Shown here piece after piece: positions 1 to 36,732 of a stretch of 64,000 bases of DNA (within the stretch, counting starts at the first letter, position 1; each line of letters opens with the position of its first letter). Source of the stretch: Tubulanus polymorphus (lineage: Eukaryota; Animalia; Nemertea); contig NC_134026.1 in NCBI RefSeq assembly GCF_964204645.1, forward strand, positions 6,471,950 to 6,535,949. Reading direction: 5' to 3'. The notes beneath the pieces were generated by a model. That model was not told the DNA's origin and made no database searches. It saw only the letters and a list, made by a program, of their open reading frames with translations. A program made the position numbers and the translations under genes.

Positions 1-155
1 AACCTTAGTGTCTGATGTACCACAAATTGGGTAAACTAGGATCCAGATCGACTGAGATCACTGTGAAACAACCACTTCCAGGACTGGGTGAAAAATAGTA
101 ACGACAGATTATGACTTGAGCCAGCTTGACTGTATTATTCTAATTAGTAACTTAC

Positions 156-1061
156 CATTAATGGTGCCCAGCATATCGTGAATATCAGAGTTATAGCGAC
201 TAAAAGTAGCACCATTTGAGATTCCATTGAGTGGCAAGGAGTTTGCATCGGCGACGGAGAACGTCTATCTCCATCTTCCCGCGCAGGCCAACTTAACCGT
301 ATCCGTTTTAGCCGAACTTTCAACAGAACACGAGTGACGAATATATTGCATCCGATTATCGTCAGAATCAATAGAATGTTGACGACGGCGAACGTGAAAG
401 CGTAGGCGCTTCCGACCGGATCTTCGGCGTGGAAATTCAAAAAACACCAAGTACCGGGATATTGCAACGCGTAATGACCGAACCCGAAAAACGGAAAACT
501 GGCGAACAGCACAACGACCGCCCATAACACCGCTAGTAATATCCGTGCTCGGGAATGATTAAAATACGTCGAATAGAAAAACCAGAAATTCAACGCGATC
601 ACTCTTTCGACCGCCATAGCGCAGACGATCAGAGGCGTAACCAGTCCGAACACGATCATCACAAACGCGTGGTATTCACAGGTAAGGTCGCCTCCGACCC
701 ATTTACGATTGTTGATATAGACGATTATAGGCATAAACGAAGTGAGAATCTGTCCCATGAGATCGGTGATGACCAGCGCGGCGACTAGCGTATAAAACAC
801 TGTTCGATGTTTAGATTTTCGCGATCGGTGCAAAACGACCAACGCTAAAACGTTGCCGATGAATCCGGCTAGAAACATTAACAGCGGAGCCGCTAAATTA
901 ATCCCGACCGTATCCCTGATTAAACAGCGCGTATCGTTTATACCGAGATCCAGTTCGCAGTTTATCGCGAAATTATCCATTTCTTCTTCGCTGAGGATTT
1001 GATCCGTTTCATTTGAAACAGTTCGCTGCTGATCGGTGATGTTGTAATTCGCCTTCATCAT
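156..1061 (-). CDS. Prostaglandin E2 receptor EP4-like class A GPCR, first coding exon (N-terminus to TM6); the rest of the gene lies left of the window
   Basis: Translation shows prostanoid-receptor motifs: GFIGNVLALVVL (TM1), FYTLVAALVITDLMGQ (TM2), CAMAVERVIAL (TM3), QYPGTWCF (ECL2 signature) and ICWAPLM (TM6). Acceptor ttttcAG lies before 1170, the first ATG is at 1061 (MMKANYN) and the donor GTAAGT follows 156 (phase 0, 302 codons). An intron in TM6 is characteristic of prostanoid receptor genes. Confidence 0.9.
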
Positions 1062-1974
1062 TGGCGTATGTCGCTTCCCTGGCGTGTATGACTGTCTGAT
1101 ACTGCTGCTGCTGCTGCCCACACAGTCGGCGTTGTTGTTGAAACCAAACAACCGTCCGTGACGTCTTGACCTGAAAATAAACAAGATTTCGTGTTAAATG
1201 GACGTGAAAACTGAGAAAACGTCTGAAACATGATATCTCTTTATAACCATTTACACAGATATACAGAAGCCACATCGTGGATGAACTGTCCCATTCACTA
1301 GCTTGATGAAATCAATTATACAGCCCAATAGAGGATGAATTCATTGCATTCAACAGGGCGTGGTTGTTAATCGTCATCATTTTGTGATAAGTAGCCAGCC
1401 GATAATTCGAATTCAGAATGACGTCATCTGTAGTTTATTTGCGTGAAAATGGCAGTGTTTGCGTAACAGTCTGAAATCTCAAAATCACACGCGGTACTTG
1501 TATAACACGTTTATATAACACTGATCTGATGACATCGTAGTGAGGGGAATAACATGAAAATGAACTTATTTTGACTTTGGTCACGATTTTATTCAAAATT
1601 GAATACAGTGACTGCGTCATTGTTATGCAAACTATTTGGATGGCAACACAAATTCTAACTTGAATAGAAATGGTTCATTAGTAGGAGTTAAGACAACAGC
1701 GCCAACACAAATACACAGTAGGGACTTATGTGACCTTAAATCTTGTTAACGAATGCGAGGCGTTAGTTGTTAAACTGGCTACAGAACTAGAATGGCCTAA
1801 GACGAAATTGGAACTATGACACCACGGTCCGGTACAAAAGTGGCCTTAAATCATAAGATTGGTCATAAAGTTGTAAGATGGCCTATAGAACTAGGATCGC
1901 GCCTTGACTGTGCTGTTCCCTGGAACTGAAAATTCAAATGAATGGTCTACTTGTGAACATATTATTGTTAGAAT

Positions 1975-2277
1975 CAAGGGTGTGTTTAGGGGGTGGACCG
2001 GGTGGACTGGTCCACCCCCTTAAAAAACTCGAATGTGCCCTCTAAAAAGTCTAGAAAAAACTTTTGCAAAGAAAATTTCAAAGCCTAAAAATAAATCAAA
2101 ATGGGTCCTGATAAGGGCAAGAAAAGCCCCTGTTTGGCCTAAATGTTCTGTGGGAGGGCCACCAGAACCCCCACCAATATTTCGCTTGCAGCCCTCGCAT
2201 TGCCAAATCCGCCCTTTCAAAGTGCCCATTCGAATTTCAAGGTCCAACCATTTCAAGGAATCCTAGATTCGCCCATG
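1975..2277. mobile_element. Non-autonomous DNA transposon (MITE), about 300 bp
   Basis: Imperfect TIRs: CAAGGGTGTGTTTAGG against the reverse complement of the right end, CATGGGCGAATCTAGG. Internal hairpin GGGGGTGGACC...GGTCCACCCCC. AGAAT occurs on both flanks (1970-1974, 2278-2282) as a possible 5-bp TSD. Confidence 0.55.
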
Positions 2278-5200
2278 AGAATACACCAGACATGAAGGTG
2301 TCAGCCCTCATCACGGTTCGTTTTCTCAACTAACCTTGTCCAACACAACTCTTTAGATGGTTATCCCGGCAGTCTGACCATTAAGACATTTACTGATACG
2401 GTATAGAACCAGCAGTGTGATATATTGTCAGTCGCTGTCAGGTTTGCTTATAAAAGATAAGCTTATTTGTATGCATAGGCTTGTTTGGTTAAATTGCTGC
2501 AAAGACCTTAGGAACCCGCTAACCAGCCGTCGATTGCCCACGCTCGCACGAGGCTTCAGATGTGCAGTTTGCGTCTCTTAAATAACGACTTTAAATATAC
2601 AATTTACGATTCCGGGTGGAAATTTCGATGAATAGAGGAATAGAGGTCTGTAGCATGATGTCGTGAAAAGGTCACGAATTACGCACGGGTTTTTAAAAGT
2701 CGACGTTTAGAATCGTTTGCAATCGACGTCTGACCTTTCGTTGCATCGCCGGGTGGTGCTTACTCGTGGCGAGCGCAGGGTTTTTTGAATATTTCTTATG
2801 ACGTCATTGTGGTAATACCACCAGTCGCAGGTGGTGGTGGTAGTGCTCGTGTTGAGAGCTCCAGATATTTCTAATTAAAGATACAAGTGATTACCGCTAT
2901 ACAAAGAAATTGCGTCGGTTTTATTGGATATGGCCGGGGCAATACATTACACCAATTCATATAATATGAGCGTAATTTGTCCCATTTCTAATATTCAATG
3001 TGTCATGACGTGAAAAGATTTGTCGACGTTTTTGCGCAGACCGCTAATCCCAACATAAAATATATATAACATGTCGAATTCAAAATGTCAGCGAACAGCT
3101 CCGCGACATTCTGCGCAAATTCGAATTGATGAATGCCATCATTAGTTCAGCATCCAGGGTTCGATTTCTACAAGGGGCTGAAGAGAATCTAGATTAACGC
3201 GTTTTCAGCCTTCGTGGTTACTTAATGGCTCACTCGGTGCAAGACTTATTGAAAAAAAGGTTTTAATCTAAAAACATTCGCAATGGGCTTATGTAAAGAA
3301 TGTCACATCGTTTAACTTGCTATTGTTGTATTATTGTTATGATTTTTATGCAATGATGACGAAACCTTACTAATCTCATAGACGTCAATGTCAATGTCCT
3401 TTCCGATAAATCGAAGTCCGTTAAGGTGTCAAATTGATTTGTCTTACGTTTTGTCTGATCACTTGTCTCGAAATCTTTTAGTATTTATTACGAAACACAT
3501 CCAAAGCCAGTGAAAATTTTTTCAGAGATGGTAAAATTATGAACGATGCTATAATGATAGACGCTAAATATTCATACGGAGTTTTTGATGTAAATTCCAT
3601 TCGAAATAGATTACACCGTTGTTGCACTTAACTCCAGACTGAAAAACGAATAAAACGAACGCGTTGGGAATTGCGTTTATTACATAAAACGTCATTTATC
3701 ATGCTATAATCCTAGCCGAGACACGATGACATTTTATCCGCTTATAGCGATTACATATTTTTCTTACCTTTCAGCAAAGATCCGCGTCTGAAACGACGTA
3801 GAATGTAATCATCCGACGAGTTGGAATTGAACGGAGCGTTGAATTTGACACGATTCATCTTTTTTATGATTGGCGAAATTCAATTGCCCCCGTAGCGCCC
3901 GACGCGCCGCGGTCTGTTTCTGGTAACCTAGACAATTTCATTCAAAATTCATGACAACGTAGTTTTGCAGTTCTTCAGACGTAATTAAGAAATCGGAAAA
4001 AAGACATTTCTATTCGCCTTTTCCCGGGGTGTCTGACTGGCGGGCAGTAAACTGCGGTATTCCCGACGCGGGGAAATTCAATTTTCTGTCTTAAATGGAT
4101 CAGACAATTTTCCTGTGTCATTTTGCAATTCTATCTCGAACCGAGCGACGAATAAAAGTGTTTCGACGGTTGCATCTAAATTGGAGTTCAGTTGACCGAA
4201 AAATACACACATTAGTGTTCTCGACGCGTTGCTGAGAATAGAAAACATTTTAAGGGAGTGGATGCTTCAAAAATGCTTCTGCCTATTCTGACATTACGAG
4301 TTTAATTAAGTATGAAGTTGAAGGGAGTGAAACAAGGAGAAACAGAGGGAAAGAAAAGTATAAAAGAAACAGCGAATAGACAAGGATGTGGAGGATGAAT
4401 TGAACCCGGGTCCCGTTTACAAAAGCCAATCGTAATAACCAGTACGGTAACCATATTCCACTGGCGGACGCCTAGCGTCCACAGTTAAAAAGCCGTAAGT
4501 CCTATTTGTGGAACAAATGCTAGTTGTAAGGTTACATTTTTCATAAGTAGCAGCTGTAGTCTTACGCAGATATCTTGTGACCTTTCCGGGACCGAAGAAA
4601 AAACGCCTCGGCCATCTTTTTAAAACAGATTTTGCTTGACAATCGCCGATGAAACTCGTAATGGGCAATTTCCTATATGAGATAAAAACAGTAATGGAGT
4701 AATGGAATAAGAGACTAACACAGTGACCAATGCCGCTGCAATCTAACGAACATAAGAGTAACATTTATAGACCCAATCGATCAGAAAGAAGCTTCAGACC
4801 ACATTTCTTCCATTATCGCATCCATAATTGTTTCGTAGCCACCGGAGAATCGGATTTCACCGCTTACAAAACATATTAGTCCCCCGTACATAGAGGCGAC
4901 ATTCTGCAGATCTCTGCGCGAGTTGCACAAGTTTCACTTTGCCTTTTATAAGCACGGTTAATTGACATTCAACTATTCACGACAGCTTATCACATTATGC
5001 CGGAAGTAAAGAGCTATAAACTGCATGCTTTTCCTCGCACGGATTCAATTGCTATTTTGAACATCTGAAACCGCATTGAAACGACATTAATTAACATTAG
5101 ACTGATGAATAATTCATTAACTAATAGATGAATTTCCTTTTAAAAAAATGTTAAGAATAAGACTACACTCCTGATAGACTCATAATTAGACTGCAGTGGT

Positions 5201-10340: not shown

Positions 10341-11165
10341 GCTATCTGAGTGTGTCTTAACCATTACATATATCCGAAATCGTGGTGAAAACGGTCAGTT
10401 AATATGAGCCGCGAGTTAGGGGAGGATGTTTCTCTCTTTACTCAATTTGCCGGTCTTTGCTCGCAAACAATGACACGTGATTGATTTCTGTGGTTTTCGG
10501 TGGACATCAGCTGGAGGCAATTTCCATAACGACCGCTGAGAATCTCGGCACGATACTTATAGTCGAAGCTGCGGCTGATTTGAATAGCGATATTTTTCAG
10601 GGGTTTTTTCTGACGATCCTGCAAACGACAGGTTCAGAGTAGATTGACGCAATTGGCTCATTAACCGTACACAGCTGCGTCTGTTGTATGGTTAATTAAA
10701 TGTTAATTTATATAAATTGAATTCGCATGTTTAGACGCGAGGTGGTCTGTTGCTCTAGCTCTAGTATTTTACAAATGCGTCGATGCCTTGTTTGCGGTTG
10801 ACGGTTTTAATCAAATTGCGCGTCAACGAAGGGACCTTTCATTACAATCTAATGTCTGTGACGATGATGTATACGCGAAACGATATGTCTTGTTAGATTC
10901 GTCTCCGTAACGAGGTTTAGACCAGGGACCTGTTTCACTGGTATGGCTTAGATTCAAGACCAATCTTAGAATAGTTCTATAGCCAGAAATGGGCCTCGAG
11001 TGTTTATTTCCGTAGACGCAAACCGTACAATCTAAGAATAAACGATTTTTCAGAATATTCAAACGTTCAGAATGTATGTTCCACAGTTCACAGATTTGTA
11101 ATTTGTAATTTAAGGCTGACGATTGTTAGTCTAACGGCATGTTTTCAATGTAACACTCAGGATTG

Positions 11166-11827
11166 TATGGTGGCTGATTCGGGCCATGTAAAATTTTTTT
11201 TTCGTCCTCCACGAAAACGCGCAAAAACAAATATGACCGCGCAAAAACAAATATGACCGCGCAAAAACAAACTTTTAACGCGCAAAAACGAAATAATCCG
11301 TTTTTGCGCGCTAAATCTTTGTTTTTGCGCGCGCGCAAAAACGAATATTTGTTTTTGCGCCCGCGCAAAACCGAAAGTTTGTTTTTGCGCGCGCGCAAAA
11401 ACAAATATTACCGCGCAAAAACAAACTTTTAACGCGCAAAAACGAAATAATCCGTTTTTGCGCGCTAAATCTTTGTTTTTGCGCGCGCGCAAAAACGAAT
11501 ATTTGTTTTTGCGCCCGCGCAAAAACGAAAGTTTGTTTTTGCGCGCGCGCAAAAACAAATATTACCGCGCAAAAACAAACTTTTAACGCGCAAAAACGAA
11601 ATAATCCGTTTTTGCGCGCTAAATCTTTGTTTTTGCGCGCGCGCAAAAACGAATATTTGTTTTTGCGCCCGCGCAAAAACGAAAGTTTGTTTTTGCGCGC
11701 GCGCAAAAACAAATATTACCGCGCAAAAACAAACTTTTAACGCGCAAAAACGAAATAATCCGTTTTTGCGCGCTAAATCTTTGTTTTTGCGCGCGCGCAA
11801 AAACGAAAGTTTGTTTTTGCGCGCGCG
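11166..11827. repeat. Left TIR arm: unique terminus of about 50 bp plus about 4 copies of a 154-bp unit of GCGCAAAAAC/GTTTTTGCGC modules
   Basis: The 154-bp period is visible directly and in ORF-track offsets (11404/11558/11712). The arm is the reverse complement of 17934-18518. Confidence 0.92.
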
Positions 11828-11913
11828 TATTATCTCACAGCGTAGCCTGATATAGTTTTGATGTATGCGCACTTGGACATCGTCAGAGGATAGTCGTAGA
11901 CTTGTTGTGGACA

Positions 11914-14835
11914 ATGATGGATGATTTTATTAGAAGCCTTTTTATGAGTGGACATCAATACTCCGATATTGTTAATCTAATCTACCTTGATTGTGGTCGA
12001 ACAATGAGGTAAGTTATAATTTCCATATACACGTAAGAATCAATCACAGTATTGAACGGAACGGCGCTATTGCATGTTTGTCTACCACCCCATCACGACC
12101 TAATACAAATTAATGTGGATTGTTGTGACTCCATGGTTGTATGGACAGGGGTTTCACTGTTGCCTAGGCCTCATACCCGACAGCTTTTTCACGGTCATAT
12201 AGTGTAACTTTTATCAAGTGATAGCATCATAGGTGCGCACGAGGGGGTTATTGCAGTTTTCGCTTATTGTTTCATGGATTACATGTTAATTTTTAAAACT
12301 AAGAGTAGTTTATCATTCGATCACTCACTCATGACAACATTCATATATTTCTCAATGTTTCAGTGTGCGTCAATTAAAGCGCCATCTGAAAAGAATGGGC
12401 TTGAAGAGGAATAAAAATTATAGTTTGGAAGACGTCTTTCATGCAGTTTCGGTAAAGATTCTTACACAATTTCTTCATTACCGCCTTCTTTTCTTCTGAT
12501 AATATATTTGAGAAACAATGGATTTTACGCACTAAACCTCCTGCCAAGAACTTGAAATCAAAATTAATCGAGAAATCAAAATAGAATCGAACACAAAATG
12601 CAGTATGAATATAATCAAAGTAAAATAAAGAGGAGAAAATTCATTGAACTAGTAATTATCTCATTATCATTCGATATTTTAGAGTGAATTGAGTGGCAGC
12701 GGCTCTTGTTTAGGTTATAGGAGCATGACGGACAGGCTGCGTCATCGATATGGTATCAAAACTCCGAGGTGAGTTTTCCGGAGGCGTAGAGGTCTGTCGT
12801 CCTAGAATATATAGGCCTACATGAAATCTTGGTCGATATGTACCCTTATCGAGAATGCATATATTCTATTTTCAAGGAGTCTGGTAGCTAGGGTTCTTCG
12901 GGAACTAGATGAGGAAGGAGTTGCAGATCGTTCGAATGGAGTTTTGAGACGTCGTCGATATTCGAACAAAGGACCCAATTACCTTATACATGTTGATGGA
13001 TACGATAAACTAAAGCCTTATGGGTTTTGTATTCACGGGGCTATGGATGGGTAAGAAATTATAGATTTCACTGATTCAAGATTTATCAGCACTGAACGGT
13101 GGCCCGACACCGCCCGGGCTCTTCGTCCGTTAGGACAAGTTACGGTGGATGTTATATATAACATTGTAACCACCTGTTTGTTTCTATTGTTCAGATTTGT
13201 TTGTTTTTTTAATCTCTGTGTTTTATTTTATTGACATATCTGTCTCATGTAATATCGGTAATTATAAGGACGCAATAAATTTGGAATTGAATTGAATTGA
13301 ATTGGTGGGATTCGAACCCATCCTAATTTAAATCCTCGAGCAATGACAGAAGTAACCTCTCACAGTTCTATCAAAACTAAAGTAAACTTAAGTTTCTGCT
13401 ATAGGCCTATTTTCTAAGATTTTGGGTAGTAGACACAAACTATTACTGTGGTATATGAACGGTCACAATGACAAGCTAGGATGGAAACAAGAATATATGC
13501 CACAGACCACAATTCAGGGGGCATTTTCATATATTTTTAGGTTTTCAAGGAGAATCCTGTGGTTGAAGGTTGCCAGTACGAATAATGATCCATCGGTCAT
13601 TGGGTATTACTTCACTGATTACATCAAACAAATTGCAGGTTAGAGAAAATGATGTTATTTTCCGTTAAATTTAGATGTAAGTAATTAACGGCACCGTACG
13701 AATATACAATAATAGGCCTACAGTATATTTATCACCAAAAAAATCACTAACTTCTATGACAAAAATCGATTACAAGCTTTGACATACAATATTTTAGTGG
13801 TATGAACCATCCATTGATCTTTTGCAGGTGTCCCTCGGTGCATACGAATCGACGCCGGAACTGAAAATGTTCTACTCTGTGAAATACAGCGATCCTTTCG
13901 GGCCGATGACAATGACGACATGGCTGGAGATATGAGCGTCTTGATCGGTAAATCAACCAGCAACCAGGTGTGCAATGTATAACCTTGGCTAAATTTGTTT
14001 GGAAGCGGATCTTGAAGATGGCAATGCGGTATATCAAATAAATATTTCAAAATTGTGTAATATATTTTTTCAGAGGATCGAACGATTTTGGCGAACACTA
14101 CGAAACTCCGTTGGCCAATTCTGGATGAATATGTTTAAGGACATGAGTGACACTGGCATTTTTTCCAATGCAGATGCTGTTCATGTGTAGGTTGACTTCT
14201 GTCTTAGATTCAATTTTTGTGGAATTTTGTTATATTAGGATGAATATAAAGTAATATGGAAACAATCTTTTTTCTTTTAGTGAAACGATACGATTTTGTT
14301 TCCACCAACTTATAGAACAAGATCTTGAAGACTTCCGCAATGAATGGAATAGTCACAGAATAAGGCGTCAAAGAAATTGTGATGTACCATGTTCTAAACC
14401 GGATCTTTTATATTTTGCACCAGAATTATTTGGTATGTACACAAGACAGCCCATACGTACAAAATGTGAAATCTTAAAGTCAGATGATGAGATTGGAATT
14501 GAAATGTTACTATATAGCATGATTATCCAAAAATTGCATCTAGCGTAACGAGGCCTGTGTACTGTACAGCAGCTTACAGATATTTTGTGATAACAATTAC
14601 TTTTGTTTTGAATTTCAATTCCATTTTAGGTACTACTGATCATAAAATTGAAATCAATTATGAAGACGTCATCGATGTTCAAGCTGAATTCTGCAAACAG
14701 CCAAACGATCGTGGTAGCAGTGAACCTGTTTTTCCAACAATGTGTGACAATATCATGGCTGTTAATGGATTTTCACTGCCGCAGTCTGCTGATGAAGCCT
14801 ACGATTTGTACATTCAACTATTGGGCCAATTTTAA
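11914..14835 (+). CDS. IS3-type (integrase-core) DDE transposase, 9 exons, 383 aa, apparently intact
   Basis: Exons 11914-12008, 12364-12451, 12683-12768, 12877-13050, 13541-13638, 13828-13967, 14074-14186, 14281-14432, 14630-14835. All introns are GT-AG, phases are compatible, and the total is 1152 nt with no internal stop. Motifs: N-terminal helical SVRQLKRHLKRMGL and LGYRSMTDRL; GPNYLIHVDGYDKLKPYGFCIHGAMDGFSRRILWL (D1); VPRCIRIDAGTEN (D2); STSNQRIERFWR (E); EWNSHRIR. Confidence 0.9.
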
Positions 14836-15130
14836 TTTTTAAAACGACACCCTTCATATCGCCAAGATTGAAAACACAAGCTTTCTTTTGCATTGTACAT
14901 GTAGTCTTTACTTATTTCCAACAAATAGAATGTATGCTGTAATACAAATTAAAGTATGCCATAATTTTTAATACACGTAATCATTTTTCATTCTTCATGA
15001 AACTAGTGGAAGCATTATGTGGTCATTTAACAACATTCATAACAAGATTCATTGCGAGTTAGCCAAGTCAGCATAAACCTCGAAATACTTTTTAACCCAC
15101 TTATTAGCCCATTGTTCTATAAAGAAATAG

Positions 15131-15170
15131 CTGTGTTGTGACCTTTTGGAACAAAAAGGTCACAACACAG
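15131..15170. repeat. Perfect 17-bp-stem hairpin
   Basis: CTGTGTTGTGACCTTTT-ggaaca-AAAAGGTCACAACACAG. Confidence 0.8.
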
Positions 15171-15524
15171 TTATCTCATTTTAGGATTCTCCTGCATCGT
15201 TTGTTATATGATATAACATTAAACTTTGATTTAACCATTTTTTGGATCGGGTAGTTTTGAATGGTTTTTTGAGAAAAAATCAACACGTCTTTGGTCTCGA
15301 TTTTTAATAATTGTTGGTACTGTCATAGGACATCTCACATCGAATTGGGTTCACCCAGTGTATCTGTCTTACCACCAGGAGAGTTGATTATCCCAGGACA
15401 CTTCTGTAGTATGAGGTAAAAGCAACGAAAGAAATACACGACGTATCAGAAGATTTACGAGTACAACGACTTATAAGTGTATCATGTTATCCTTTATTTG
15501 CCCAATAATATACACTAAACTACT

Positions 15525-15846
15525 TGACAAGTTTATGTTCTGCTATCTACAGATACAAGAGAACATTAAGTCAGTGTCTTACATGCATTCACGCATCAGA
15601 TATATATTGACAAATCCTAACAATACGGATTAAGCGGGTTCGATTCTTAACAACTCAAACTCAAAACTATAATATCACAGCCGATATGAACTAAACGAAT
15701 TGACAGGTTAATGTTCTGCTGTCTACAGATACATAGAACTGTCTTACCATGCATTCACGCATCAGATATTGACAAATCCTAACAATACGGATTAAGCGGG
15801 TTCGATTCTTAACTCAAACTCAAAACTATAATATCACAGCTGATAT
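15525..15846. repeat. Tandem duplication of about 150-175 bp inside the transposon
   Basis: Two near-identical blocks (about 15525-15687 and 15700-15846) share CATGCATTCACGCATCAGATAT...GACAAATCCTAACAATACGGATTAAGCGGGTTCGATTCTTAAC...CAAAACTATAATATCACAGC. Confidence 0.85.
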
Positions 15847-16616
15847 ATCATAAACTAAAACATCTACATGCATGAACAACTATGCAAAAGGAAAGATGAA
15901 CACTAAAACAGTGTATGTCAATTAAAGTACAAGATGGATGTTATATCATGCCATAGACAGTAACTAGGGGTCCAGAGACGCCATGCCCACTTGGGAAGTG
16001 CTTTGAAGTGCTCGACAATCTAACAATTTCAAACATGTTGATATCTTTCTCAAAAAAGGTCACATGACGGCCAGGATTGCGTAAAAATTTGATTTAATAT
16101 ATGAATGGATCAACTAGTACAATAATTTAGTGAAATAGATAACGGTTTTTGAGTCCATATGGCGAAATCCGATAGACTACAATTGCTGACTATAACTTTT
16201 TTCACTCCCTTCAGGCCCCTGTCAAAAATTTACTGTTTGTATGATGTTCTATCCATGTATTTATCCAGGAATTATTCTATCCAGGAATTATTAATTGATG
16301 TCGAAATATATCTACAAATAGCTCTAATACTCCATTTTGTATAACCTCCCAAAAAGACCGCCATTTTCTTTTTCAAATGAAGATAGACTGACCGAATGAC
16401 TGAGAAAAATTATATTGATTCAGCAAATTTTTACAAAATCCTTGTTTAGGTTTATTCTTTTAAATGAAATGCAAATTATCACTATTATGAACTTGTATCA
16501 TGCAGATTGAAGAGCAGTTCCTTGATTGTTCAATGCATTATTATTAAATTTGATTGCTTGTAAATTCTCCGGACGAACGAAAAGTGAACGCAATAGCTGA
16601 ATAGCTCCCAAGTGAG

Positions 16617-17530
16617 CTAAAAACAATACATGTAATCCGATTTAACTACGCATCTGTAAAAAGTATGGCTAGCTCCTATAACTGCAAAGTCCATGTAACT
16701 TTTGAATTGTTCATATGTTGTATGTACAGGAATAGATAGTACGTTGCAACACGTATTCGCCGTTGGAAAGTTCTTCGTCGCATCACTGATTTCATCAGGG
16801 TGACGAAATTGGAGTTGAAGAGGTGGATCAAATCCGAGAATGGGAACCTGTTCCAAACCGGTGACAAACCGGAGAAAGTCAATCATTTGGTCTCCTAACA
16901 GAAAAGAATATAACAAGAATACAACATTTCCTCATTTTCATTTATAAATTTGGGTGTTTTAGTACGATATACCTTCAATGTCTGTCAGGTATTCTCGAAA
17001 CCATCCATACGATTTGTTTTCTAGAAGTCGACGGTTTGTACCAATTTCGTTCCACAGAATATTATCAAAACTAAATGCCGATAAAACATCCTCTGCCGTA
17101 AAAATTCTGTTTGCACCGGCACAGAACACATCTCTCAATAGATGTGGATATGCACCTACATAAAACAGGAGTCCATTTTCTTCCAATCCACTCTTAAACC
17201 TGCAATGACATTAGAAATGTTTGATTTGAATTAGCCATTCGATATTTCGATAGATGACCTTTTATGTAGCGCTTCAAATACAATGAGATATTACTTAAGC
17301 AAGGACGAGTGTCCATAAAACCCACAAGACATTCATTGAATTAAAGATACAGCCAATGGACACTTACTGTCTTAATGCTTCGCCTAAACGATGAACTGCC
17401 AGAAATACAGATAATGTTTTGATGAGTTTGTCCTTTTTTGAGAAATGTGCATAATTTATGCACCCAGCAACCGATATAACGTTTTCATACTTTGTCACTA
17501 ACCCATCAAAATCATCTGTAGTTGTACATT
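16617..17530 (-). pseudogene. HECT-domain E3 ubiquitin ligase (G2E3-like C-terminal part), 3 surviving exons, 5'-incomplete, carried by the transposon
   Basis: Phase-compatible GT-AG exons 17530-17368, 17199-16973 and 16894-16617 give ...ALRQFKSGLEENGLLFYVGAYPHLLRDVFC...YLTDIEGDQMIDFLRFVTGLEQVPILGFDPP...FPTANTCCNVLSIPVHTTYEQFKSYMDFAV. This matches the HECT C-lobe (FVTG...PxGF; PxAxTC catalytic Cys; LxLP-Y...F). Only about 220 aa are present and the start of the N-lobe is missing. Confidence 0.82.
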
Positions 17531-17933
17531 CTGAAATGTATAAAAACGATATAAAGATAAACATGCAGTACAGGGGCGGAGCCAGGATTTTCAAAAATGT
17601 GTCTTTTTTCACCAATACTACACAAACATTACTGAGTGAATCGGCTTAGACCCGGGTACATGACCTTTATCCACTGGGAAGTGATTAAAACCGTCTAACG
17701 ATCCATTGTTTAATGATATGTAAAAGTAGGCCTACACTAATGATTAATAGCCATATAACGATCAAGCAATTGAATCAAAAGTTTATATTTACATCTGTTT
17801 CTTGAGGATGATTAGCCATCTTCTGCGAGCGACCATGCAACAAGAGCGTGCTACCTCTATGAACATGGGGCACGGCACTCTTGTACGTAATGCGATCAGG
17901 ATCGATAAAAAATAATTCATTAAGCCTTTGTTG

Positions 17934-18518
17934 TTGCGCACGCGCAAAAACAAACATTCGTTTTTGCGCGCGCGCAAAAACAAAGATTTAGCGCGCAAAA
18001 ACGGATTATTTCGTTTTTGCGCGTTAAAAGTTTGTTTTTGCGCGGTAATATTTGTTTTTGCGCGCGCGCAAAAACAAACTTTCGTTTTTGCGCGCGCGCA
18101 AAAACAAAGATTTAGCGCGCAAAAACGGATTATTTCGTTTTTGCGCGTTAAAAGTTTGTTTTTGCGCGGTAATATTTGTTTTTGCGCGGGCGCAAAAACA
18201 AATATTCGTTTTTGCGCGCGCGCAAAAACGGATTATTTCGTTTTTGCGCGTTAAAAGTTTGTTTTTGCGCGGTAATATTTGTTTTTGCGCGCGCGCAAAA
18301 ACAAACTTTCGTTTTTGCGCGGGCGCAAAAACAAATATTCGTTTTTGCGCGCGCGCAAAAACAAAGATTTAGCGCGCAAAAACGGATTATTTCGTTTTTG
18401 CGCGTTAAAAGTTTGTTTTTGCGCGGTAATATTTGTTTTTGCGCGGTCATATTTGTTTTTGCGCGTTTTCGTGGAGGACGAAAAAAAAAATTTTACATGG
18501 CCCGAATCAGCCACCATA
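17934..18518. repeat. Right TIR arm (inverted copy of the left array, with different module order internally)
   Basis: Same GCGCAAAAAC modules in reverse orientation. The outer part of about 240 bp is near-identical to the left arm. Confidence 0.92.
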
Positions 18519-21500
18519 GGATTGGACTACTTGCCGCACGGAGAAATACAAATGTCAAATAGCGCTGAAAATGGCGGTAAGTCAACAGTCTTGGTCCCAG
18601 TGTTTAACTCGAATAGAGCAGTGGTTAGTATTAACAAAGCGAAACCACAGGAAACTTCAGGGAATCGCGTCCCAGACTGAAAGGAAATTGAGAGTGTCCT
18701 TAGAGAGCGGACGATACCGTTAAGGAAACCATAGACAACCTAGAACTGTAGAATTCACCGCGAGGAAGAGGCGATTTAAGAGCCGGGAGACGCAACTAAT
18801 GGAAATAAACATCGCACTTAGAGACGATCAGAAGCGAATAGACTGTGATTCGTGTCATACGCGGATAAATCTATTAGAACACGAGAGGAAAATACACAGA
18901 CTACACAGGTTTAATACCTAATACACTGTGAACAAACAGGAAATAATCAACGAGATAGAATCAGAAAACAGACCAGATTAAAGTCGTCTTTACGATGAGG
19001 AAGAAGGCACGAAGAGAACGTCTTCTTTAAATCGAGGATAAAGCGAGCTACGTACATACGTAATGGCTAGATTACATCCATCAGAATCACATTAATAACT
19101 CGGCTATTTCCGGTAGAAAATAAAACCAAACAGATATCACTGTCTCAGTAATAAGGCGATCAGAGAGAAACAAATAGAAAAATGATGAAATGCTTTCAGA
19201 TGACCAGGACACATCTGTTCTACATTTCCGTTCATCTTTTCCTTCTCACTGCGGTACTTAACTCGAGCGAGTGCTTTAAAAACTCCTCAAGACAAGCATC
19301 TTTATTCTTATGATCCCCGGAATTATGAATGCTATCAAAAATACATAAAGGGAAAAATATCGTAAATGCTGTTAAACTAATGGTTCAGCAATGTTTTTAA
19401 TAGGTGCACACCTTCTTAACGGGTTTTTCTCATACTTGTGTTAAGTACCTCCATCATCGCGATGCATTTTACTGCGTAACTGTGTTTACTGCTGCTAAGA
19501 CAAATAGTAACTTTACTATCGAAAACAAACATCATAATTCAAGATCGTATTGAATAACTTAATAGTTTATCCGTTAAACAACGATGGACTCGGAGTTCAT
19601 GATGCAACCTAACATCTTTATAAAGGTCTGTTACAGCATGGACTCTAAAACGAAGCGTTTTTCATGGTTACAGTTAAGTTTGAGAGAATAGCAAATTACT
19701 AAATTGCAGAAACTTATAGTCGGCGTGCCGAAGGTTCAAGAATGGGATATCCTGGCATGTTTTGTTAATGGTTGGTCCGATACATCAATCGATAGATCAG
19801 ATCCTGTAGGTAGTTTGTGAAAATATACCTGTTGCCTGTTGGGGTCCTCATTTCTTCACCTATAGGACGCGCTGAAGTTGCTATGGTTGATTACCATATT
19901 GCGGTTTTGTTTATGTCTTACTTCTTGAATAGAAATCATATAATACGATATCCAGCTTTAGACGGATACCTTTGTAGTATTTTATTGGAATTCATGTAGT
20001 TATTTTTGTATCTTATCTTTATGAATCGCTGATTTCTACATATCGACTAAACACCATACCAGTAGCGAATTCAGATTACTAATTAGGAATACATTTCACG
20101 CGAATGGGAATGCACTGGAAATTTTAATTTCACCTGCGAATTTTTCCTCTCGTCGCCTGCTTTCAAACGAGGAAAATGAAGATTGAATTACTAGACGATA
20201 AAATGATAAAAAGCGGTTTCATAGAACTCATTGCAATCAATGAAGTGTCATTAAATTGTAATTACATTGACGAACAGATATGCTACGTAGTGCTTTCCGC
20301 CTAAACACTTCAACAAGGTGTTTTTTTCAATAAGACATCGATATAACACAACGGTAGCTTTATTAATGGATAAATCTTGAAACCCAACGGAGTTTATTCT
20401 ATCACGTCGTTGTAACAAGTAGTTATGTGTTGAGGCCTCTCGATAAAGATATCGCTTTACATTAAACGGGTTTTGAAAAAAATCTCGATTTGTTTTATGG
20501 TTTGCATTGAATGGAAAATGGCCGTTAAATTCAATTTGACGTCGTTGATAGCAGTCGGTAATAGCGGAAATAACCATTACAGTACATCGGCTAAAACTCC
20601 ATAAAACACTTCAAATATCGAAATCTGATGAATTTCTATTTGTCTAATATGTTTCATGTCGTTTAATGTAGCATTCAACGTGTTTATGAAACGATCATTT
20701 GGGACTCGTTAGCGGGAAACGGGGATATAGCAAAATACACCAACAAGGAACCGCAACTCCCTTTTAACTGTAACGATTGCTGGGTTCGATTCCATAGTTC
20801 CCGCGGCAACAATTTTAATCTAGAGTTTAGACACTAGAAATATCTACTTTTCATTTTCAAATTTTGGTCCTTTAAAGGTCCTGTTAACATCTTACAGTCA
20901 ACATCATACAGACTACAATAGTTAATAATAAGTCCGTATTAGGTAAGTCATCTTTGGATCACATCTCAACTCTCGGTTTTGTGTACTGGGTCTAAAAGAT
21001 TTCGACCGACAGATTTAACTGACTCAATTTAACTCTGATTGGCTCTGAATCTTATCCCATTAGGAATGTCAGTAAGTTGGTTCTTTGAACCTGCGGTTTC
21101 TGATCAATTTGCTTTAGAAATCCTATCACGTCTTTCCCCGATACACGCAAACACACAAATATTTGTCTTTGAACCGACATTTGATTTAATAACCGCACGC
21201 GTTCTCAGCTTCAGTTTCGTAGCAATAAATACACTTTATCCCAATAGCACAAACACTCTTTGTAACATTTCCTGTACTGCACCGTGGAACGCTTCAAGGG
21301 TCACTATTCACACCTGTCGGGTTGGAGCTATTTTCAAAGTTTCTGCACTTCCTCAAAATGAAGTTTACTAAAACGAACCTATACTTTCTACAAATTCCGA
21401 TAGAAATAGATTTCTAACCCTGAAAAAAATCACGCGTAAATTCAGAAAAACGTATTGAACAAGGTATTCTATTTTACACGCGGGCGCTAGTCTATTTCAA

Positions 21501-34200: not shown

Positions 34201-35797
34201 ATAGATTTAGATATAAATATTTCGCGCTCTATTCATCATTTGTATGGGATTTTACACAATCTAGACAACACGGACTCTGAGTGTTTGATGAATGGTTCCT
34301 ACTTATCACATTGTGAAACAATTAGTGCGTTATGATCAACAATGACATAAAATAGAATAGCATGAATTTTTCAGTGAGTAGTTCCGTCGTTTGGTTCTAC
34401 TGTTATCATGTGTATATATCATGCATCAAATAAATGAAAATTCTAATCTGAAATTTAACATAAAAATCCTGATTTGAATTCTAATTGACCAATGTTGACC
34501 TGCAGCCCTATATAGATTATGACTGACGCCAGCTGTCGTCTGCATATAGAATGCATACACTTAGGACCGGTTTCAATTAGTTTGCCCGACCAAAATGAAA
34601 TTCATCTATTAAGTTTTGACAGCCATACAACGTGTAACTGCGACCCGGCGTAAAATGTATCATTTTCAATTTCTGAATTAGCGCTAAATTCTTGTAGCTC
34701 AAGGAAACATTTCGGACTTTATTTTTTATTCACAGTGTGATATTTACTCCATTAACGTCACAAGCAAACAGAGTATTTCATCAATGGTTATCTTACTAAC
34801 GTATTCGATATCAATTAAGAATTATATTTTTTCTTCTATTGTATTCTTATGCATCTTAGAATAAACTATTTACTTCACCTAATCTACGAAATTTGTTACC
34901 TGTCTAGCTTTACTTATCCCGAGAATCAGTTGGCACTGCTGTAAGCGATGTCTTCTCTTTGGATACTGATATCCGATGTATCGGTTTTATACCGATCTTG
35001 AGCGTCCCGCGCACGAGTGAAACCTCTAACGGCAGAATGAGATCGGAAAAAACTGCAAATAACCTTCAATCGAACGGTCGTCAGACAGCTTTTGAATCGA
35101 GTAAATTATTGTGTTTTCTTTGAACTAACTCATAAATTTGAGGTAAATACTAAAAAGAAAGATAAGCTTTTGACTAGGAATTACATAGATAATCCACAGA
35201 CTTCAGTCCCACGTTATTTCGGTTAAAATTAATGTAAAATACATTGGAAATAAATCAGCCGTAATCTAAAAGGTTTCGGGAGGTCTCCATTAACGTATTT
35301 ATGCATTTGCTTAACGTGACATTATGTGATGGCAATCCGATATAAGAGAATATCTTATGTAAAATGCTGCCAGAACAAGTAATTAACATAATCGATGCAT
35401 GTTTGATTTAAATATCGTATGCGATGTGAATTGTTTATTTGAGAAATGTTTTTCGTGTTAACAGTTTCAAATACGCGTTCAGTTGATTTGACGCTGAGGT
35501 TTTTTCTGTTTCTTATTGACAAATTGGAGAATCTGGCGGTGACAGGGTCGTGGAATAAATCGCAGCTATTCGGTTTCATCTTCGATTTGACGGTTCTTCT
35601 CTTTGACTGCTTTGTTCAGGGCTCTCACTAACACGCACGTGAACCGAAACTCGAGATTTGAAAGGCATCACAATCCGTGTTTGACGACTGGATCACGCAG
35701 TCTAGCCGATATCGCGTGACTCTCGCGTTATCCCCGGCGCTACAGTCGTCTCCAAATTCGAACAACATTTCAGTTGAAAACGCGCTGCCGTGCAGAA

Positions 35798-36732
35798 ATG
35801 GCATCGAATGTCTCTTCTCAAGCAACTTTGAAGCCGTTGAGAGAATTCTTAGGTTACGTGCCGTATTTAGAACCGATCCTGATCGCTATCGGTGCATTTT
35901 TTCTGACCGTGAGTTTTTTCGGCAATTTCACGATCGCATTTGTTTTCAACGGTAAAAACCTTCGTAAAACCTCGTACTCGATTCTGTTCACGACTCTCGC
36001 CGTTTCCGACACGATCTATTTAAGTGTCACGTGTCCGCGACGCGTAGTTCAATGGGTGACGGTTTATCAAACTGATATCGTAAGGAATTCACCAGCGATT
36101 GTGTGTAAAATTCAGAAATATCTGGCCTATTGCACGGCAATGTTGTCGGCTTGGGTTCTGGTCATTATAAGCATTGAACGCTGCATCTCGGTCGCTTTGC
36201 CGATGAAAGCGAAAACAATTTGTACGCGGAAGAATATCCGCATCGCTCTGGCGGTCGTAGCGATCCCGATACTGGCAGTGAACGGTCACTACCCTTACGG
36301 TTGGTGCCCGTTTGTAGTTGATAGCAAATACCATCAAATCGAACAATATTTAGAGACTTTAGATCTGGTGTTGAGTGTCGCAGTGCCGTTTACCGTTTCT
36401 ATAACCAGTAATATCATAATCATCGTTTTAATGAGAAGGTCCAGACATGAACGTGAGGTTTTAGGCACCGGAGGTTTTAGGCACCGAAAAGTAAAATCGA
36501 TAGTGTCACTTTTATGTTACTGACGACAAATTTTACATTTATCATCCTAACCATGCCGTTTACGCTGTACATATCGATACCTAAAATACGTTATCCCGGG
36601 ATTATCGTTGACGCTGTTATCAATTTCTTTTCGTACGCGAATTACGGAATCAATTTCTGGTTGTATTGCATTAGCGGACCGAGATTTCGTCGCGAGATGG
36701 TACAAATGTTACGCTCCTGCTGTAGTAATTAA
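35798..36732 (+). pseudogene. Single-exon class A peptide-type GPCR (FMRFamide-receptor-like invertebrate expansion), frameshifted in ICL3
   Basis: ATG at 35798 (MASNVSS) follows an acceptor at 35773. Motifs: SFFGN (TM1), LAVSD (TM2), CKIQKYL...LSAWVLVIISIERCISVALPMKAKTICT (TM3/ICL2), VPF (TM5). TM6-TM7 (FMLLTTNFTFIILTMP...NYGINFWLYCISGPRFRREM) are in a different frame, and the switch falls at the duplicated GAGGTTTTAGGCACCG (36455-36486). Confidence 0.85.

Follow-up and report, generated by a model that had tools for sequence, protein, structure and literature searches.

The stretch of Tubulanus polymorphus (Nemertea) DNA analysed here, 64,000 nucleotides of contig NC_134026.1 (positions 6,471,950 to 6,535,949; the window, in whose own numbering positions are given below), carries a recently inserted, low-copy IS3EU transposon that encodes an intact DDE (Asp-Asp-Glu) transposase and, on the opposite strand, three exons of a HECT ubiquitin ligase gene. 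Our reading, to which we assign a probability of roughly 0.7, is that this second gene is a 5′-truncated and likely inactive remnant of a cargo gene that is common, tail to tail with the transposase, among the relatives of the element, and that the cargo acts as a helper in the intact relatives. The object of interest is the second-gene slot of the family, and not a working ligase in the window copy. If the reading is true, a group of DNA transposons encodes its own ubiquitin ligase, and mobile DNA would thereby have a direct way of using the ubiquitin system of its host. Many host gene models named "G2E3-like" would then be reassigned to transposons, affecting the counts of ubiquitin ligase (E3) gene families in animals.

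The element and its transposase

The element spans 11166-18518 (7353 bp), starts with TATGG, ends with CCATA, and is flanked by an exact 6-bp target-site duplication (TSD), GGATTG, at 11160-11165 and 18519-18524 (chance of a 6-base match, 3e-4). Its terminal inverted repeats (TIRs) are 99% complementary across 276 bp, and the inverted-repeat arms are alignable over ~660/580 bp with the subterminal tandem units included. The transposase on the + strand and the HECT exons on the − strand have convergent 3′ ends, and no second copy of the element was found within the window. The features are listed below, with identities of the HECT exons given to P0149, a sister ligase of the same species.

11160-11165, left TSD copy; the empty-site joint skips 7359 = 7353 + 6 bases
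11166-11827, + strand, left TIR with the TATGG end and a subterminal array of 3.8 x 154-bp units
11914-14835, + strand, IS3EU DDE transposase, nine exons, 383 residues, intact
14836-16616, spacer between the convergent 3′ ends
16617-16894, − strand, HECT exon D, C-lobe with the catalytic Cys (16751-16749); 64% identity to P0149 351-423; an extra base at ~16659 shifts the tail in the window copy
16973-17200, − strand, HECT exon C, end of the N-lobe, hinge and start of the C-lobe; 54% identity to P0149 272-345
17367-17537, − strand, HECT exon B, the first exon that survives, covering the second half of the E2-binding region; 46% identity to P0149 214-270
17538-17936, − strand, 400-bp stretch from exon B to the right repeat, without similarity to the missing N-lobe; likely deletion site
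17937-18518, − strand, right TIR with the CCATA end and a subterminal array
18519-18524, right TSD copy

IS3EU elements are defined by TA..TA termini and, in most cases, a duplication of 6 bp (PMC10045372), and fungal members have TAYGG..CCRTA ends (PMC12730594). The window element has the TA..TA (TAYGG..CCRTA) termini with inverted repeats of IS3EU/GingerRoot, and a 6-bp TSD with which the empty allele described below agrees. In its transposase, the first catalytic Asp is residue 130, within the 100-300 residues from the N-terminus that characterize IS3EU, HHCC is absent, and core motifs are common to it, IS3EU-1_DR and IS3EU-2_SK when compared by eye with a published alignment.

The transposase reading frame joins nine exons (11914-12008, 12364-12451, 12683-12768, 12877-13050, 13541-13638, 13828-13967, 14074-14186, 14281-14432 and 14630-14835) and encodes 383 residues, with zero internal stops and GT..AG boundaries at 8/8 introns. 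The product is identical to the T. polymorphus RefSeq protein XP_074643210.1, and therefore the same exons were obtained in an independent annotation; a near-identical second copy, XP_074656641.1, with 380/383 residues equal, lies on another chromosome-size contig. It matches Pfam rva_4 (E 3e-36) and has the DDE residues D130, D189 and E230.

In two other sequencing runs, X5 and X1, joints from 11158 to 18518 skip 7359 bases, namely the element plus one duplication. This empty site occurs in 5 reads with 3 start points in X5, and as one unbranched 5168-bp contig with zero flank differences in X1; its presence in both runs therefore indicates a recent insertion. In X1, reads cover the element at a depth of ~111-130 and the flank at 35; in X5 the values are ~13-22 and 5-8, and depth is similar over both genes. 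Overall, interior depth is ~2.5-3.5x that of the flank, and 12 X1 contigs arrive at 11166 from other flanks. A further run, X7, contributed no more than one short repeat piece. The family is low-copy and polymorphic for insertion. Many contigs and reads contain joints that connect both ends over short interiors (11166-11310, 18430-18518), which point to abundant non-autonomous relatives sharing the termini, and the depth of the element ends is 20-60x that of the interior. The element is a real, low-copy IS3EU cut-and-paste transposon, otherwise an ordinary active IS3EU copy, and in this respect the findings bear out the initial sequence-only reading of this DNA, which had described a young IS3EU-like transposon with a perfect 6-bp TSD, near-identical TIRs, a nine-exon DDE transposase on the + strand and a tail-to-tail gene order.

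Several further observations concern the element or its relatives. At 12437, 14729-14730, 15072, 16089, 16658-16659, 16791, 16890 and 17825, all or nearly all reads of the other runs differ from the window; these sites are private changes of the window copy or assembly errors, and two of them change transposase residues 57 and 349. The spacer contains an imperfect internal duplication of ~160 bp at 15508-15858 (spacing about 160-176 bp) and, at 15962-16032, a 70-bp piece of a very high-copy repeat (read depth ~2600 vs 15) with a consistent continuation past 16032 in the reads. A hydrophobic, signal-peptide-like N-terminus, unexpected for a nuclear enzyme, is conserved in many related transposases (P0008, P0010, P0020, P0039, P0063), not in the window protein. 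T. polymorphus also has a third transposase family, the P0002 cluster of 12 RefSeq models, and, in the P0156 cluster, a further partial G2E3-like model.

The HECT exons of the element

The HECT exons occupy 17537/17530-17367, 17200-16973 and 16894-16617 on the − strand. The last of them matches the HECT profile PF00632 (E 1.9e-13) and provides a C-lobe with the catalytic Cys, read earlier as PTANTC, whose codon (16751-16749) aligns with the invariant C394 of P0149 (XP_074656802.1). This 427-residue "G2E3-like" protein of T. polymorphus is the closest of 395 relatives to the exons. The three-exon HECT C-terminal gene proposed for the − strand is confirmed in this sense; its exons cover only residues 214-424 of P0149, the ~210 last residues.

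Nothing in the element matches residues 1-213 of P0149. An N-lobe profile of 137 columns gave zero matches at E<=100 in the six frames of the element, and the same profile found 7 open reading frames (ORFs) in control loci. The complete N-lobe for binding of the ubiquitin-conjugating enzyme (E2) is not present, with ~150 of its residues absent, and the interval of 400 bp from exon B to the right repeat is shorter than the ~450 missing coding bases. In the structural model of P0149, nine helices or strand groups, most of the large N-lobe subdomain, fall in the part that is missing from the element.

Exons B and C contain no Met, and no conserved start codon was found. Upstream, only one Met is both in frame and accompanied by a plausible donor. 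It is a variant that lies within the repeat array, and its frame is interrupted by a 1-base deletion at 17913 in 9/19 X5 reads and in the main X1 contig. A candidate first exon at 17957-17855 was rejected, since it has no HECT similarity, shuffles equal its score in 102-206 of 300 cases, and it is frameshifted in many copies. The earlier statement that each gene starts just inside a TIR array thus stands for the transposase and falls, as the start of a whole gene, for HECT. At the other end, the extra base at ~16659 (+1 frameshift) is absent in 15/17 X5 reads; in the window copy the tail continues 12 residues past the Phe, rather than ending four residues after it. By our reading of the sequence, the frame lacking the extra base would end four residues past the last Phe, like that of P0149. 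The terminal Phe has a role in the HECT tail.

In HECT ligases, the N-lobe binds E2, N-terminal regions recognise substrates, and the active site includes the C-terminal extension (PMC13196369); even the first N-lobe helix has been shown to matter for solubility (PMC9547173). Because most of the N-lobe and all of the substrate-binding N-terminal sequence are lost, the remnant is unlikely to ubiquitinate anything, and the HECT gene of the element is likely a 5′-truncated and inactive remnant. The surviving exons are open with canonical splice sites, and therefore the N-terminal loss appears recent. The proposal of a two-gene system able to ubiquitinate accordingly fails for the window copy, whose N-lobe is mostly missing, yet the element inserted recently.

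Transposase-HECT pairing among relatives

A metagenome scan with a transposase profile returned 515 related stretches in 36/64 parts, and the best 80 were kept for locus counts. A convergent HECT gene was found in 20/80 loci with a first HECT profile built from 14 database proteins, and in 27/80 after one iteration; it was present in 18/21 loci with at least 2.5 kb downstream and in 14/16 with 3 kb. All 27 HECT genes, which include four near-duplicate pairs, lie downstream of the transposase on the opposite strand, with zero in any other orientation, and 25 of them have the Cys motif. Three long loci without HECT hold a protein kinase (L026), a long interspersed nuclear element (LINE) insertion (L054) and nothing identified (L018). 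One locus, L057, is a whole element (55-5166) with TA ends, a 29/30 terminal match, a 6-bp duplication and both genes inside; in another, L076, the ends match and the duplication is absent. Most of the 351 pairs were saturated or near-identical, and the two informative close pairs point to purifying selection, with ratios of nonsynonymous to synonymous substitution (dN/dS) for HECT of 0.06 (101 codons) and 0.20 (215 codons) and for the transposase of 0.09 and 0.15.

T. polymorphus itself has a sister family with a full HECT gene. The Pfam HECT match of P0149 covers 11-304 of 306 profile positions, and its predicted structure (pLDDT, the predicted local distance difference test score, 81.7) has as top fold matches Smurf2, HUWE1 and NEDD4 and shows a complete bilobal HECT fold with the Cys and the terminal Phe. 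The accessions of P0149 and of the sister transposase, XP_074656803.1, follow one another on a single contig, and each of the two proteins has a second copy, at 99%, on a different contig.

Based on these sequences, it is supported at the family level that HECT belongs to IS3EU elements as an established second gene and is not a recent capture. Since many relatives carry the whole gene in the same position, the ligase has probably long served these transposons as a helper. The earlier suggestion of a dedicated accessory gene, for which linkage across loci and dN/dS had been named as checks, is upheld by both at this level, together with the full HECT of the sister family. Its converse, that the HECT piece is a neutrally evolving fragment of a single-copy host ligase, was largely refuted, as the nearest relative is multi-copy and the HECT of the relatives is under purifying selection.

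The G2E3-like proteins were examined in the same way. N-terminal PHD/RING-like zinc fingers were found neither in P0149 (Pfam: HECT only) nor in 19/19 long relatives, and a profile search, a weak one, returned 3 proteins, none of which is a true G2E3. One identical protein occurs at three accessions in Patella vulgata, and a 12-member cluster in Erpetoichthys and Polypterus. This multi-copy state fits transposon cargo, as had been suggested for the many "G2E3-like" annotations of animal genomes.

Among viral contigs, 4 pattern matches and zero relatives were obtained. A search of prokaryote genomes gave 14 loci (L081-L094), all in metagenome-assembled records and with introns or animal-type repeats, and two of them have convergent HECT remnants; a bacterial origin was rejected, and the intron-split transposases and animal-type repeats are likely host contamination. 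In the L059 family, Phe replaces the catalytic Cys of HECT, and part of the transposase is duplicated in inverted orientation within the HECT region (L059:1807-2062 and 4741-4970).

An exchangeable second gene

Trees of the two genes were built from 21 rows, leaving out four near-duplicates and four short pieces. The window and sister pair stand together in both the transposase and the HECT trees. Across all rows, transposase and HECT distances are weakly correlated (rho 0.22; 120/3000 permutations, or 213/3000 when two congruent tips are left out). In the approximately unbiased (AU) test, three sister pairs of the transposase are rejected by the HECT data (p 2e-82, 2e-85 and 3e-4), where the pairs were picked after viewing the trees, the transposase tree was a quick one, and assembly chimeras are possible. 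The DNA similarity of L023 and L003 is limited to the transposase. Strict co-phylogeny, proposed earlier as a check on co-evolution of the two genes, was rejected, as the topologies conflict beyond the close pairs.

Several relatives have a UBX match in an ORF upstream of HECT; this ORF matches the FAF1 helix and UBX (E 2e-10), its model matches di-ubiquitin, consistent with two predicted ubiquitin-like folds, and in L013 the UBX and the start of the HECT N-lobe share one ORF. In three other loci, the HECT slot is occupied by a convergent Ser/Thr kinase, identified by Pfam in L026 (2956-4352) and L092 (9915-11425) and by motifs in L089, which is a whole 9331-bp element (L089:5883-15213) with ends matching at 25/25 and a 6-bp duplication. 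A ubiquitin-like profile gives a weak match to the L089 gene (E 0.021 in a set of 17,315 sequences), and every other match below E 1 falls within a HECT protein or lies upstream of a HECT ORF. Judged by its sequences, the second-gene slot is modular, holding HECT, HECT with a FAF1-like p97 adaptor, or a kinase.

Discussion

Based on the findings in this study, we propose that the transposase would bind the terminal repeats and arrays, excise the element and insert it through a 6-bp staggered cut, as DDE biology suggests, and that in intact relatives the second gene may provide a diffusible protein-modifying helper, composed of an N-terminal ubiquitin-like module and a catalytic domain that can be exchanged, either a Ser/Thr kinase or a HECT domain of one of two classes. 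The FAF1-like helix and UBX of some families would recruit p97, which could extract ubiquitinated proteins from chromatin. As a target, the transposase complex clamped on DNA after insertion would be the most likely, and host silencing proteins the next candidate; between the two we lean slightly toward the former. The unfoldase ClpX removes the stable MuA transposase complex in phage Mu (PMC5540906), and the helper could be its eukaryotic counterpart; a p97-type removal role for any eukaryotic transposon was not found in literature searches. If the helper is diffusible, the window family would therefore either transpose in its absence or use, in trans, the full ligase encoded by its sister family. 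The same species harbours both a family that moved recently with its ligase broken and a young sister family whose ligase is whole, a natural experiment in which the need in cis, the help in trans and the substrate become testable with two defined genes.

Several points weigh against this proposal. P0149 would adjoin the sister transposase as judged from consecutive accessions on one contig rather than from DNA, and it has no UBX domain. With four near-duplicate pairs among the metagenome contigs, the 27 HECT loci are not 27 independent species. The same truncated layout was seen elsewhere only in two overlapping X2 contigs (17320-17638, 17609-18019) and in the even X5 depth, which makes a family-wide truncation possible rather than certain. 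Exons B-D have no stops and keep canonical splice sites, and the tail frameshift is missing from most X5 reads, both of which could mean selection on the remnant. The transposase-disassembly step draws on domain content and on the ClpX-MuA analogy.

The strongest competing explanation, which we hold to be possible but clearly less probable than the helper reading, is that intact elements use their cargo ligase to counter silencing, by ubiquitinating host chromatin or piRNA (PIWI-interacting RNA) pathway proteins, the window remnant being dead and its family a free-rider. The TET/JBP dioxygenases of fungal IS3EU have been proposed to evade methylation silencing (PMC12730594), the rapid swaps of catalytic domains among close transposase lineages fit an arms race better than a fixed partner, and the window element moves despite its broken ligase. 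However, an N-terminal module common to HECT and kinase cargo, as the weak L089 match would indicate, equally fits a transposon-encoded target.

That the truncated gene is functional, yielding a short HECT protein whose translation starts within or close to the right repeat array and which acts as a ligase or a C-lobe decoy, is improbable. In its favour, the exons are open, the splice sites intact and the Cys present, Met/donor positions at 17957/17854 yield an in-frame first exon in the window copy, and the frame of other copies, as we read the read differences, ends like that of P0149. Against it stand the missing N-lobe residues, the candidate first exon without HECT similarity and frameshifted in many copies, and the shifted tail of the window copy; moreover, exon D matched no annotated protein of 134-2000 residues in a word-based search, a weak one, and two transposase copies are annotated. 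A neutral fragment newly captured from a host ligase gene in Pack-type manner is very improbable and largely refuted: the piece is indeed a fragment with introns, and GingerRoot elements in clubmoss take up exon-intron fragments (22/77 carry them; PMC6839031), but the same gene recurs in the same position and strand in the relatives under purifying selection, and the nearest relative is multi-copy, has the accession next to the sister transposase and groups with the window in both trees.

The helper reading can be extended, though only tentatively, the whole being less probable than not by a wide measure. IS3EU elements could be two-gene machines with a modular protein-modifier, that is, a self-encoded tag-and-extract device shared in trans. 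In this joint proposal, a conserved ubiquitin-like targeting domain would be combined with an exchangeable HECT or kinase domain, in some cases with a FAF1-like p97 adaptor, and would act on the transposase complex or on host silencing proteins; most animal "G2E3-like" proteins would be cargo, and the inactive HECT of vertebrate G2E3 would have been domesticated from it.

Among known systems, IS3EU/GingerRoot elements resemble the window element in TA..TA ends, the 6-bp duplication and an IS3/IS481-like DDE core, and differ in that the window element has a second, convergent ligase gene, the main texts of both descriptions containing neither HECT nor ubiquitin (PMC10045372, PMC6839031). The fungal TAYGG..CCRTA IS3EU elements with an alpha-kinase share the ends and a second gene opposite the transposase that encodes a protein-modifying enzyme, whereas the animal element has HECT (a Ser/Thr kinase in three relatives) and no TET/JBP gene (PMC12730594). 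G2E3 and GL-Metazoa are divergent HECT families, with a late origin of G2E3; unlike these Class IV ligases, the element and P0149 have no PHD/RING fingers, are multi-copy and are linked to transposons, and the accessible text of the two HECT surveys contains no form of the word "transpos-" (PMC3673628, PMC2837046). FAF1, a p97 cofactor, is matched by N-terminal ORFs of relatives in its helix and UBX, but this module is absent from the window element.

A term search for "HECT" gave 0 instances in the main text of each of PMC10045372, PMC12730594, PMC11934779, PMC6839031 and bioRxiv 2021.09.26.461848, and no IS3EU-HECT link was found in searchable papers, a scope that excludes Repbase entries, Kojima's review (PMID 30416149) and the supplements of PMC12730594 and PMC6839031. 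The pairing seems to be undescribed in searchable papers, and an earlier mention in Repbase is possible.

Other features of the window

Far from the element, the window contains two single-exon ORFs resembling rhodopsin-family G-protein-coupled receptors, at 144-1193 (− strand) and 35720-36523 (+ strand).

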